Virus record (IMG/VR): IMGVR_UViG_2778261167_000009
DNA: 11,902 bases
Reading direction: 5' to 3' (one strand)
Source of the DNA: a virus
Taxonomy: Duplodnaviria > Heunggongvirae > Uroviricota > Caudoviricetes
Shown here: piece by piece, positions 1-11,660 of the stretch
Layout of the letters: the number at the start of each line of letters is the position of its first letter
How positions within the stretch are numbered: the first letter of the stretch is position 1
Notes under the pieces: generated by a model
What the model was told of the DNA's origin: nothing
Databases searched by the model: none
What the model saw: only the letters and a program-made list of their open reading frames with translations
Translations under genes and position numbers: made by a program

Positions 1-234
1 CTACATGTTTTCACATGACTGTTGCGTTGACCAATTGAATCTACAGGTTCGTATGTTGCGCATATCCACGCCGTTAAGCTCAATACCGTCACGGCGCATT
101 ACCTCAGCCACCACACGCGCGTAATTTTCGGCTATCACGCTGTCCGGCTGTGTAGCCTGTTCGTCAGGCTGCTGACTGATTCCGGTAATGCGGCGAATTA
201 TTTTTAGTAGATCAGTTTCAGTCATTCTCGTCAT
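1..234 (-). CDS. Hypothetical 77-aa protein immediately downstream of terL (possibly a head-completion or connector-type protein; function not recognised)
   Basis: Complete ORF; its ATG (232-234) overlaps the terL stop (231-233) in an ATGA arrangement, and its TAG stop is at 1-3. Same strand and operon as the packaging genes. Confidence 0.5.
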   Translation of the reverse strand: MTRMTETDLLKIIRRITGISQQPDEQATQPDSVIAENYARVVAEVMRRDGIELNGVDMRNIRTCRFNWSTQQSCENM

Positions 235-1892
235 ACCCCATCAAATGCCGCTAGTCGCTCTTTCTGGCTGTCGCTCATATCAAATGCAAATTCCTCATGC
301 TCAGCCTGGAATGTGCCAAACGCCATCAGCGCCGCAACGCTCGGGTCTATCTTGTTGGATGATTTTTTCTTGTTCGGCTTGATATTGGCGTTCGCGTCAC
401 TCTGCATCACAACATTACTCATTGACCAGGCCAGCACCGGATCACCACGATGCACAATCACCTTCCGGTTAACAAAAACCTCGAACGATTTCGCCGCCGG
501 ACTGAAACGAAGGTAGGTTTGAGGGAACGGCTCCACCTCAAAGCCTGCCCCCTGTAACTGCGTTCTCAGGTGCGTGGCGTTCCACGTATCAAAGCCCACC
601 AGCCTGATATTGAAATTCTCTGCATCCGCCATGATGTCATCACGGATACGGTCATAATCAATGCAGTCACCCGGTGTTGTGCGTATCCAGCCCGCCTTTG
701 CCCACTGGCGATAGATGGCGCGGTTTTTATTGGCGGGGTTCTGTAGCTGAAATTCCGGCAGATAATGACGAGAAACCAGCATAATGGTTTTACCAACCGG
801 AAAGGCATAGCACACGCTGGAGATGTCGCTTGTGGATGATAAATCAAGCCCCGCGTAACACTCCTGACCGTGTAAATCTTCCTCCGTGAACGTTCCGGCG
901 CACTCAGCCCATGCACCGTTACCCATCCACGGCGTAGCCCCCTGACACCAGATATTGAATCGCTTGGTGAGCATTTCCACCCACTGCGACGGAATACCCC
1001 GCGCTTTCTGGATGGTTGAGGCCAGTTTTTCACGATCTACGGAAACATCGATATTGGGATTCGCCTTTATCCACATCGCCGGATCGTCAACCTCGCTTTC
1101 ATCATCCAGCTCATAAATCAGAACGAACATGGATTCGTTCACCTCTTCACCATCCAGTATCTGGCAGCAATAGTCGTAGTGTTGTTTACAGGCTGAAACA
1201 ACGTTGCTCCCCGATGTGGTGATGGCAAATAACAGCCCCTCCGGGCGTGCCCCCATTCCCAGTTCAAGCGCGGAATAAACCCCGTTGTCAGGGTGCAGGT
1301 GATATTCATCCACAATGGCAAGACTCGGGTTTGTACCTTCAATGGTTGCTGCTTTTGCTGCCAGTGGCTTTAACAGACTGTTGGTTTTCGGGTGTATCAC
1401 CTTGTGTGCCTGAATATTTACCCGCTTTCGTAACGGTCGGGATAAAAGGCACATCTGACGCGCATCATCAAACACGATCCGCGCCTGATCACGACTCACG
1501 GCGGCGGTGTAAATATCCTGCTGCCCGTTTTCCATAACCAGAAACCAGTTAGCCAGGATAGCGGCGACCGTGGATTTGGCATTTTTTCGCGGTACTTCAA
1601 TGAATGCGCTGGTGTATTTGCGCCGTCCGGTGGCCTTAACCTTAAAGCCCAGGATGCACGCAAAGGCGAACTGCTGCCACGGCTCCAGCTCAATGGGGCT
1701 ACCGCGCATTGCGCCTTTTACGTGCGGACACACCCTGGAAAAGGCAATAAACCGCTCCACGACCTCCGGATCGAACGTGTAAAGGGGGTTTTCAAGGTCA
1801 GAAAAATACCGTTTAACGGCCTGTTTCAGTCGTTTACAGGCCGTAATTTTGCCGTTTTTTACGCCTTCTGCGTACTCATGCCAGGCGGTCAA
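231..1892 (-). CDS. terL: Terminase large subunit
   Basis: 553-aa translation has a typical TerL N-terminal ATPase region (KITACKRLKQAV..., IAFSRVCPHVKG, LEPWQQF) and C-terminal nuclease region. The only in-frame start before residue 61 is TTG at 1890-1892, preceded by a purine-rich SD-like stretch (GAGGAAGAGGA). It overlaps the terS 3' end by 17 nt. Confidence 0.9.
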   Translation of the reverse strand: MTAWHEYAEGVKNGKITACKRLKQAVKRYFSDLENPLYTFDPEVVERFIAFSRVCPHVKGAMRGSPIELEPWQQFAFACILGFKVKATGRRKYTSAFIEVPRKNAKSTVAAILANWFLVMENGQQDIYTAAVSRDQARIVFDDARQMCLLSRPLRKRVNIQAHKVIHPKTNSLLKPLAAKAATIEGTNPSLAIVDEYHLHPDNGVYSALELGMGARPEGLLFAITTSGSNVVSACKQHYDYCCQILDGEEVNESMFVLIYELDDESEVDDPAMWIKANPNIDVSVDREKLASTIQKARGIPSQWVEMLTKRFNIWCQGATPWMGNGAWAECAGTFTEEDLHGQECYAGLDLSSTSDISSVCYAFPVGKTIMLVSRHYLPEFQLQNPANKNRAIYRQWAKAGWIRTTPGDCIDYDRIRDDIMADAENFNIRLVGFDTWNATHLRTQLQGAGFEVEPFPQTYLRFSPAAKSFEVFVNRKVIVHRGDPVLAWSMSNVVMQSDANANIKPNKKKSSNKIDPSVAALMAFGTFQAEHEEFAFDMSDSQKERLAAFDGV

Positions 1893-2232
1893 GCTCGTCC
1901 TCTTCCTCTGTTTCCGGTGGATTTCTGCGGCGGCTTACCGGGTCAAAACCCAGCAAAGAAGCCATTTTGATCATTATTCTTTCCGCGTCAGCCTTTGCGC
2001 TCAGGGCGGGGTTTCTGCTCTCGCTGCCCTGACTGTTAACAATGCTGAACCCGCGCGTCGCAAGGTCTTCGACGGCTTTGCGGTATATGGAGTAGTTAAC
2101 ACAATACAGTTCCAGATTGCTCCAGTCGGCGGGGGTAAGGTCTTCCCGCCCGGAAAGCTGGCGCGATTTTTCCTTCCACTGCCTGACCGCGATTTCATCC
2201 AGGTAAGCGGGGGCTTTTGGTGGTCTTGCCAT
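1876..2232 (-). CDS. terS: Terminase small subunit, P27-family-like
   Basis: Translation from the ATG at 2230-2232 (MARPPKAPAYLDEIAVRQW...LELYCVNYSIYRKAVEDL...NPALSAKADAERIMIKMASLLGFDP) resembles P27-type small terminase subunits. The ORF-track extension to 2373 runs through a G-rich non-protein-like stretch and is not used. Confidence 0.8.
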   Translation of the reverse strand: MARPPKAPAYLDEIAVRQWKEKSRQLSGREDLTPADWSNLELYCVNYSIYRKAVEDLATRGFSIVNSQGSESRNPALSAKADAERIMIKMASLLGFDPVSRRRNPPETEEEDELDRLA

Positions 2233-2520
2233 GTTCTTTTTTCGCCCAATTATTTTCAAAAAAATTACCGTGCACAAAAATTTGAGGGGGCGGTCGGTGT
2301 CCGGTAGGGACGGTTTCGTCCTGAAAACCACCCCCACCCCCTCTGACGGCCTCACCAGCGATTGCGAAAACATTCCATGACCTCGCGGTCACGGTCGGTT
2401 AATCGCTTCGCTGTGGTGCGTTTTGTGCGCCCTGTCCTGTTGGCTTTGTGCTCTGTCTCCTGTGTCTTCCATGTGTCACGCTGCCTTATCAGTCCACGTA
2501 TCAGCCTGGTTTGCTCCTGT
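2233..2520. other. Candidate cos/packaging-site region between the HNH and terS genes
   Basis: 288-bp non-coding gap directly upstream of terS, containing G/C homopolymer tracts (gaggggg at 2284-2290, ccacccccaccccctc at 2327-2342), an inverted repeat gaggggg/ccccctc and a short hairpin (2307-2321). Position matches where HNH-dependent cos phages carry cos. Not verified. Confidence 0.3.
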
Positions 2521-2961
2521 TCAGTCATCATCGCCATACATCCAGTCGTTACGGTGTGCCGCCCGTTCTTCCTGCTCGCGATACATGCCCGCTTTACGGT
2601 TTGCTTTCGTGGCTGGATCTTCCCGTGTCGTCTTACGGTTGTGGCACGTCTGGCACAATGCCTGGTGATTCCACTCAGGCCAGAAGAGAACATCACCGCC
2701 GCCATTGATGGGAATGATGTGATCCACCACAAGAGCTGGTGTATAAATACCCTTAGCCAGACAACGCACGCATAACGGGTTTTTGCTCAGGTACAGGGCG
2801 CGGTATTTGTCCCACTGTCGGGAATACCCACGTGCGCGGCGGTGTCCCCGTCTGGCATCCTCTGCACGCCATGCAGCCCGCCTGTGCTCTTCACACTTGC
2901 CGGACTTCACGCGCTTATTACAGCCCGGCTCAGTGCATCGCCTTAATGGTTGCCACGGCAT
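2521..2961 (-). CDS. HNH endonuclease, packaging-associated
   Basis: 146-aa translation with cysteine pairs (CTEPGCNKRVKSGKCEEH, CVRCLAKG) and an HNH core (VVDHIIPINGGG...NHQALCQTCHNRKT). ATG at 2959-2961 shares one nucleotide with the connector stop. Located immediately upstream of terS. Confidence 0.9.
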   Translation of the reverse strand: MPWQPLRRCTEPGCNKRVKSGKCEEHRRAAWRAEDARRGHRRARGYSRQWDKYRALYLSKNPLCVRCLAKGIYTPALVVDHIIPINGGGDVLFWPEWNHQALCQTCHNRKTTREDPATKANRKAGMYREQEERAAHRNDWMYGDDD

Positions 2962-11567: not shown

Positions 11568-11631
11568 TAGCATTGCCCACTAGCCGACAACCTGGTATTC
11601 TGGATATGCTCAAGTTTAGTGTTATGCCACT

Positions 11632-11660
11632 GGCGACCGCCCCCGGTCGCCTTTGTTTTA
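11632..11660 (+). terminator. Rho-independent terminator ending the plus-strand small-gene module
   Basis: Stem GGCGACCG, loop CCCC, stem CGGTCGCC (11632-11651), followed by TTTGTTTTA. It sits inside the 306-aa minus-strand ORF, arguing that ORF is not real. Confidence 0.6.

Follow-up and report, generated by a model that had tools for sequence, protein, structure and literature searches.

The window, by which we mean the whole 11,902-nucleotide stretch of DNA analysed here, is a capsid-forming PICI (cf-PICI) of E. coli, a phage satellite. All of its relevant genes lie on the minus strand. Pfam matches identify a D5-type primase (10147-8315), a major capsid protein (6256-5087), a prohead protease (5032-4472), a portal protein (4560-3256) and a head-tail connector (3350-2961), and Pfam finds no tail or lysis genes in the window. 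Published cf-PICIs are defined as islands of 10-18 kb that carry an integrase, a replication module, a capsid-protease-portal-connector set and an hnh-terS-terL set, and that lack tail and lysis genes (10.1101/2025.02.11.637232). In Proteobacteria, the capsid, protease, portal and connector genes come first in these elements and are followed by hnh-terS-terL (10.1101/2022.09.08.507074, 10.1101/2025.02.11.637232). The Pfam matches and the annotated gene context place both sets in the element studied here, again without tail or lysis genes. In E. coli EA2, a copy that is 99.6% identical is located between fis and yhdJ and has a tyrosine integrase at its far end. The region spanning the HNH gene and terS occurs in 534 of 5426 complete E. 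coli genomes (~10%), is chromosomal every time, and shares 81% DNA identity with EcCIEDL933, the prototype cf-PICI, as carried by strain EDL933.

The packaging module begins with an HNH endonuclease gene (2521-2961, minus strand; Pfam HNH, E = 8.8e-10; annotated as an HNH endonuclease by PGAP), whose 146-aa product is a homologue of HK97 gp74 (36% identity, E = 6e-17) and shares 38% identity with the HNH protein of SfIV. At the other end of the module, terL (231-1892, minus strand) encodes a 553-aa HK97-type large terminase that is recognized by Pfam TerL_ATPase and TerL_nuclease and matches the HK97 TerL structure, PDB 6Z6D, with E = 7.6e-43. These two relationships bear out the HK97-like arrangement that a preliminary description of this DNA had suggested. 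Between the two genes, terS (1876-2232, minus strand; Pfam Terminase_4, E = 4e-23; phrog_83) encodes a 118-aa small terminase of the P27 family, to which phiE125 gp1 and the TerS of SfIV also belong. The protein is 85% identical to the TerS of KpCIDSM30104/Ant and 34% identical to that of phiE125. It has no detectable relationship to HK97 gp1, so the analogy between the TerS sites of the two elements is weak. The terS start at ATG 2232 agrees with both PGAP and the Ant annotation, and sequence conservation sets in at this codon. In the window, the terS frame is also open upstream as far as ATG 2373, which has GAGG 7 nt before it, giving an ORF that spans the whole cos region; the Pfam match to the P27-family small terminase falls within this ORF (2373-1876). 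We rejected the 165-aa terS that would begin at ATG 2373, as relatives do not conserve the added stretch and have stop codons in it.

The preliminary description held that the HNH gene lies directly upstream of terS, across a non-coding gap of 288 bp. The HNH ORF does end at 2521 and terS does start at 2232, with the HNH gene on the upstream side, but the two are separated by a small conserved gene (2352-2537, minus strand) that overlaps the 3' end of the HNH gene by 17 nt. The true intergenic gap is therefore the 119 bp from 2351 to 2233, and it is this part that is non-coding; positions 2537-2352 encode a 61-aa protein rich in arginine and lysine, which is annotated by PGAP (CDS WP_001251188.1), matches phrog_3173 (E = 6e-27) and has an open frame in relatives. 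The protein has no Pfam match. Of 187 related loci, about 173 have its ORF intact at a length of 50-63 codons, and they encode 82 distinct protein variants with a conserved C-terminus (...RDREVMECFRNR), and conservation is highest at codon position 2, intermediate at position 1 and lowest at position 3. The small proteins of relatives fall into two length classes, of ~54 and 60-61 aa, with a common C-terminal RDRE(V/L)(M/R)ECFRNR. Pasteurella Pmp8 is without the small gene, the Xenorhabdus loci are missing the C-terminal motif upstream of the G-run, and Acinetobacter phage AbIPP1 has an unrelated small ORF in the same position.

Read along the minus strand, the 119-bp gap can be divided into five parts. 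An upstream block (2343-2318), GAGGGGGTGGGGGTGGTTTTCAGGAC, consists of a G-run followed by TTTTCAGGAC. A hypervariable spacer of ~20 nt (2317-2297), GAAACCGTCCCTACCGGACAC, includes a small hairpin, and is succeeded by a C-rich core (2296-2287) that we predict, from the contig ends of relatives, to form a 10-nt 3' cohesive end, 5'-CGACCGCCCC-3'. Next comes a downstream block (2286-2250), CTCAAA TTTTT GTGCACGG TAATTTTTTT GAAAATAA, or CTCAAATTTTTGTGCACGGTAATTTTTTTGAAAATAA in full, and finally a variable stretch (2249-2233) leads up to the terS ATG. The homopolymer tracts noted previously, GGGGGTGGGGG (2341-2331) and CCCCC (2290-2286), are present, as is a 10-nt inverted repeat, GAGGGGGCGG / CCACCCCCTC, whose arms at 2284-2293 and 2334-2343 are 90% complementary. 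The hairpin GGAC...GTCC is likewise present in the window; we discarded it as a functional feature because its pairs are not kept in relatives. The motif GGGGNGGGGG occurs once in the 11.9 kb, against 0.10 occurrences expected.

To compare these parts across relatives, we gathered related loci by three independent routes: IMG/VR was scanned for exact patterns of the G-run block, metagenomes were scanned with the downstream block, and one genome per species was scanned by TerS protein alignment alone. To keep selection bias out, each block was scored in the loci that the other block had retrieved. The upstream block (2343-2318) reaches a mean pairwise identity of 0.92 and positions 2298-2250 reach 0.88, with values of 0.86-0.90 for the downstream block itself; for comparison, terS third codon positions score 0.65-0.68, the spacer (2317-2299) 0.64-0.66 and the stretch before the ATG 0.56. 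Both blocks are conserved to the level of terS codon positions 1 and 2, and the spacer to the level of its third positions. As judged from these comparisons, the two non-coding blocks are under strong purifying selection and the spacer drifts neutrally. The loci selected only on TerS, which come from more than 20 genera, tell the same story: their upstream regions, 73 of them unique, represent Klebsiella, Citrobacter, Serratia, Proteus, Xenorhabdus, Photorhabdus, Erwinia, Gilliamella, Pasteurellaceae and others, and the G-run appears in 65 of the 73 and a T-run of 6 or more in 69. The architecture is also retained in Pasteurella Pmp8 and Acinetobacter phage AbIPP1. Within the downstream block, the T7/A-tract at 2264-2258 is, by analogy, a candidate for the TerS-binding (cosB-like) part of the site.

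Conserved non-coding blocks just ahead of terS and terL could also be transcriptional signals, terminating or attenuating transcription past the small gene or serving as a promoter for terS-terL, with the G-run and C-run pairing in the mRNA ahead of AAAUUUUU. The gap folds modestly better than shuffled sequences (z about -2.3), and in the predicted RNA fold 2343-2334 pairs with 2293-2284, with AAAUUUUU next. The complementarity of the two runs is kept in 119 unique sequences, and among the weak terminator-like hits that are all a terminator scan returned is a site at 2349-2334. Against this explanation, a loop of 40 nt and an AAA between the stem and the U-run are atypical for intrinsic terminators. 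RNAalifold and pair counts over the 119 sequences detected no compensatory change in the stem formed by the G-run and C-run: there is hardly any variation in either arm, and the changes that do occur are one-sided, from G-C to G-U. Since compensatory changes are lacking, the complementarity speaks neither for nor against a structure. A promoter scan found no sigma-70-like promoter on the minus strand, and an Rfam scan of 2100-2650 gave no match. Finally, the layout of the gap recurs at the mapped genome ends of HK97 and phiE125, and a transcriptional signal would not account for the 69 bp and 10 nt that are missing from the linear DNA of two relatives; both points are described below. We therefore consider a transcriptional role for the blocks improbable, though it is the best surviving of the alternatives to a cos site.

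Phages with HNH-assisted terminases have, as a textbook feature, their cos site in the interval from HNH to terS. The ends of relatives' DNA point to one in this gap. The record LR881103 (vB_KppS-Ant) is a 16.5-kb SPAdes contig assembled from virion DNA, obtained from phage preparations on K. pneumoniae DSM 30104, and is >99% identical to a region of the DSM 30104 genome (PMC8006926). The record ends with ...GGTTTTCAGGAC (...GGGGTGGGGGAGGTTTTCAGGAC) and starts 22 nt before the terS ATG. Compared with the chromosome of the host ATCC 13883, exactly 69 bp of the gap are missing from it, and a 99.5% identical IMG/VR locus agrees; the missing bases comprise the spacer, the core and the downstream block, and include the predicted nick site. 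Because a permuted or circular template would have assembled through the gap, the template of this assembly was presumably linear. The nicked, cohesive tips of a linear molecule may be lost in tagmentation libraries, a library type that we suppose for this record. The gap could in principle instead reflect a coverage dropout at a homopolymer-rich spot rather than the ends of molecules, and the publication gives no description of how the ends were determined (PMC8006926). Ant was published as a filamentous ssDNA phage derived from a prophage (PMC8006926); it encodes a capsid protein, portal, protease, HNH, TerS and TerL, and is a cf-PICI. Its ends are identical to the K. pneumoniae ATCC 13883 chromosome, and it appears to correspond to KpCIDSM30104, as the host strain is the same. 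A 2.3-kb gene after its terL is annotated as a tape measure protein, and the window has nothing comparable.

A second relative places the ends more finely. The IMG/VR contig 3300022664_000095 (15,518 bp; loci L351 and L094) is collinear with Ant from end to end, in the same permutation, and has no terminal overlap. It starts at CTCAAATTTTT (CTCAAATTTTTACGC..., CTCAAATTTTTACGCACGG...), 60 nt before terS, and ends with ...GCAAGGCAC (...CAGGACAAAACCCAAGCCGCAAGGCAC), 10 nt upstream of its start point. In relatives whose sequence spans this junction, exactly 10 nt lie between the two end points in 51 of 52 cases and 9 nt in the remaining one. The commonest junction 10-mer in relatives is CACCCGCCCC, and in window-type elements it is CGACCGCCCC. 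A loss of 10 nt fits the blunting of a 10-nt 3' overhang during end repair. A 5' overhang is disfavoured, since fill-in would duplicate 10-12 nt at both contig ends and 10 nt are missing instead. The 10-nt figure comes from a single metagenomic contig, and its 3' polarity is deduced from the loss of bases rather than from library chemistry. Weak support comes from a draft-genome contig (L071), which terminates no more than 1 nt from the right duplex end predicted here. We restricted this analysis to the unit-length contig with two facing ends: over ~200 IMG/VR and metagenome loci, only 3-4 true contig ends fall in the gap, which by a rough estimate is about the level expected by chance.

That low tally, together with the reduced Illumina coverage of homopolymer-rich sequence, is what favours a second alternative, in which the contig breaks are assembly artefacts at the G/C and T homopolymers, the blocks are kept as a site for a regulator or replication protein, and the true cos lies elsewhere in the island. 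Two independent unit-length assemblies of identical permutation, Ant and 3300022664_000095, nonetheless break here and nowhere else, one of them with a loss of exactly 10 nt, and the same region assembles readily in the integrated copies of hundreds of genomes; we regard this explanation as slightly less probable still than a transcriptional one. Headful (pac) packaging, with the region acting as a pac recognition site at which cuts are imprecise, has a precedent in the TerS-encoding pac-type SaPIs (cited in 10.1101/2022.09.08.507074) but is very improbable here: pac predicts permuted, redundant DNA, whereas the unit-length linear contig has fixed ends, zero terminal redundancy and exactly 10 nt missing, an HK97-type TerL coupled to an HNH gene is a combination tied to cos cleavage, and cohesive-end concatemers have been reported for KpCIDSM30104 (10.1101/2025.02.11.637232). 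Even taken together, these three alternatives to a cos site are unlikely, and none of them explains unit-length linear DNA that is broken only in the gap.

Two further phage records yielded no information on ends. Klebsiella phage P12620-1 (PQ569648; L003/L005), considered as a second virion record, proved to be a chimeric assembly: its 106.5-kb 'complete genome' joins ~90.6 kb of phage to ~15.9 kb of cf-PICI, with a junction inside the terS start and the end of the record inside the small gene. The record of Acinetobacter phage AbIPP1 starts at the terS ATG and has been re-ordered, and it served for motif conservation only.

In the order and spacing of short motifs, the gap also recalls cos sites that have been characterized in phages. 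In the HK97 record, a G9 run near the right end (...GGGGGGGGG) is followed by 32 nt, GAC and CGCCGCCAAA, and the record starts with GTTTGAATTTAACGC...CCCGATTTTTTT. HK97 has a 10-nt 3' overhang, whose sequence is not given, and its TerS binds at +15 to +29, a region with a C:G pair and an A-tract (PMC11331095); cleavage is stimulated by gp74 (PMC9410871). Like the site proposed here, HK97 cos is flanked by an HNH gene, at the right genome end, and by terS, at the left, in an element with homologous TerL and HNH proteins. Its G-run stands ~42 nt before the top-strand cut, the cut falls in a C-rich core of the GACCGCC type, and a T-run (A-tract) comes shortly before terS; the 10-nt 3' overhang would be a further likeness, being a prediction in our element. 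The two differ in that their TerS proteins are unrelated in sequence, the spacing from core to T-run is shorter in the window, the window has the extra small gene between HNH and cos, and it is a tail-less satellite of ~15 kb compared with a phage of 40 kb.

The Burkholderia phages phiE125, phi1026b and phi644-2 have 10-nt 3' extensions, with 5'-CGCCCGCTTC-3' at the right end, a sequence confirmed for phiE125 (PMC2920897). The phiE125 record ends and starts in the layout ...GGGGAGGGGGG, 32 nt, GAC|CGCCCGCTTC|GTCGAATTTTCACGC. This phage shares with the window a P27-family TerS and a G-run, which in phiE125 lies 42 nt before the cut, and its cut 6 nt before TTTT(C)ACGC takes the same position as the predicted cut before CTCAAA TTTTT. 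Its overhang begins directly after GAC, whereas the predicted overhang in the window begins 3 nt earlier relative to the GACCGCC core, and its record has no adjacent HNH gene annotated at the right end. In Gordonia phage Zirinka, judged by its record ends only, a G-run is followed by 42 nt up to the record end, and the record starts with GCTCGCTTTTTACACGC. HK97, phiE125 and Zirinka all show a distance of 42 nt from the end of the G-run to the top-strand cut, with a T-run plus ACGC 6-7 nt beyond the cut; the corresponding distances in the window are 41 nt from the G-run to the predicted nick and 6 nt (CTCAAA) from there to TTTTT. This resemblance consists of ordered short motifs and was noticed post hoc. 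Pairwise alignment of the gap with HK97 cos is not significant: of 2000 shuffles, 805 attained the local score and 70 the global one. Two observations depart from the pattern. The distance from the CGCC core to the T-run is 4 nt less in enterobacterial cf-PICIs than in phiE125, HK97 and Pmp8 (window positions 2281-2296 compared), so that anchoring the site on GAC|CGCC would move the predicted nicks by 4 nt, and the SfIV record starts ~17 nt upstream of the analogous position, which does not fit the cut proposed here.

The resemblance to lambda cos (cosQ-cosN-cosB) is one of logic, with a nicking site that is flanked, beside terS, by a site for terminase binding and, on the last-packaged side, by an upstream element. 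Lambda has a 12-nt 5' overhang, the opposite polarity to that predicted here, uses gpNu1 and IHF, lacks an HNH protein and has an unrelated TerS. The window, for its part, has a P27 TerS and an HNH gene, and bases at the contig ends of its relative are missing rather than duplicated. Among cf-PICIs, EcCIEDL933 and KpCIDSM30104 (Penades laboratory) match the window in family, gene order and packaging module, and KpCIDSM30104 / vB_KppS-Ant has the same cos blocks. The window differs from them in allele group: its spacer, its variant of the small gene and its pre-ATG region are its own.

Gene context, purifying selection, the ends of relatives' DNA inside the gap and the shared motif layout together lead us to conclude that the 119-bp gap between the small gene and terS very probably holds the cos site of this cf-PICI, a conclusion drawn from comparative sequence data. 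The earlier proposal of a cos in the interval from HNH to terS is thereby supported and can be narrowed, with the putative cos elements confined to 2343-2250. The exact nicks are less certain than the site itself; we think it reasonably likely that they fall at 2287/2286 on the minus strand and 2297/2296 on the plus strand.

We propose that upon induction the island would replicate as concatemers, by analogy with HK97. The island's own P27 TerS would bind the A/T-tract block just upstream of terS (~2286-2250), and TerL, aided by HNH, would nick the two strands in staggered fashion ~54 nt ahead of the terS ATG. Nicking at 2287/2286 (minus) and 2297/2296 (plus) would leave 10-nt 3' cohesive ends, 5'-CGACCGCCCC-3', the polarity being that suggested by the relative's contig. 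DNA would then enter the island's own small capsids terS first, with terL next, then the genes for integration and replication and then those for the capsid, until packaging is brought to a halt by the next cos, leaving a right end that carries the HNH gene, the small gene and the G-run block. The preliminary description had the packaged genome running from terS to the HNH gene. The orientation stands, with two refinements: the predicted start lies 54 nt before terS, and the predicted end lies past the small gene and the G-run block rather than at HNH itself. The assignment of proteins to blocks in this model, including TerS binding, is made by analogy and is putative.

A more tentative extension of this model concerns the G-run block, whose presumed role in cos may be a distinct one. 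Its fixed position 41-42 bp upstream of the nick raises the possibility, which we hold to be a minority one, that it is an undescribed cos sub-site common to HNH-dependent terminases from Actinobacteria (Zirinka) to Proteobacteria (HK97, phiE125 and cf-PICIs), where it could dock HNH or TerL, or serve as a termination signal of the cosQ kind, four helical turns from the cut. As part of the same proposal, the adjacent phrog_3173 protein of enterobacterial cf-PICIs could assist at cos as an accessory factor and contribute to restricting packaging to the satellite; any function for this 61-aa protein is, for now, conjecture. As the layout is common to HK97, phiE125 and an actinophage, our comparison suggests that the geometry of HNH-assisted terminase cutting is old and conserved, with the TerS-binding part being variable.

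That a cf-PICI should have a cos site is already known in outline and is no surprise. These elements are reported to use their own HNH-TerS-TerL for packaging (10.1101/2022.09.08.507074), and their DNA is reported to have cohesive ends (10.1101/2025.02.11.637232); the cf-PICI literature that we found mentions cos and gives no map of it. What is new is the probable location of the site to the base from public data, and this novelty is modest; the G-run at a fixed distance in distant phage groups and the small gene beside cos are the only parts that may be new in themselves. cf-PICIs are widespread and move between species in their own capsids. A cos defined at base level would provide the minimal cis element for making any plasmid transferable by cf-PICI particles, a marker for finding complete elements in viromes, and a substrate with which to test how a satellite terminase discriminates its own DNA from that of its helper.

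Two minor observations concern the same sequences elsewhere. The 10-mer GACCGCCCCC, which is also found in the cos core, has a second copy on the plus strand at 11629-11648, giving two matches in the window against 0.08 expected. This copy sits inside a perfect palindrome with 7-bp arms, GGCGACC GCCCCC GGTCGCC, near the start of a 306-aa ORF (11668-10748), and is probably unrelated to packaging, because it has no G-run or T-run context. In Xenorhabdus, the terS and cos module is present in many copies, on at least 8 contigs in X. kozodoii DSM 17907 and at least 6 in X. innexi DSM 16336; since many short contigs break near the module, these insect pathogens seem to carry islands of this kind in multiple copies.
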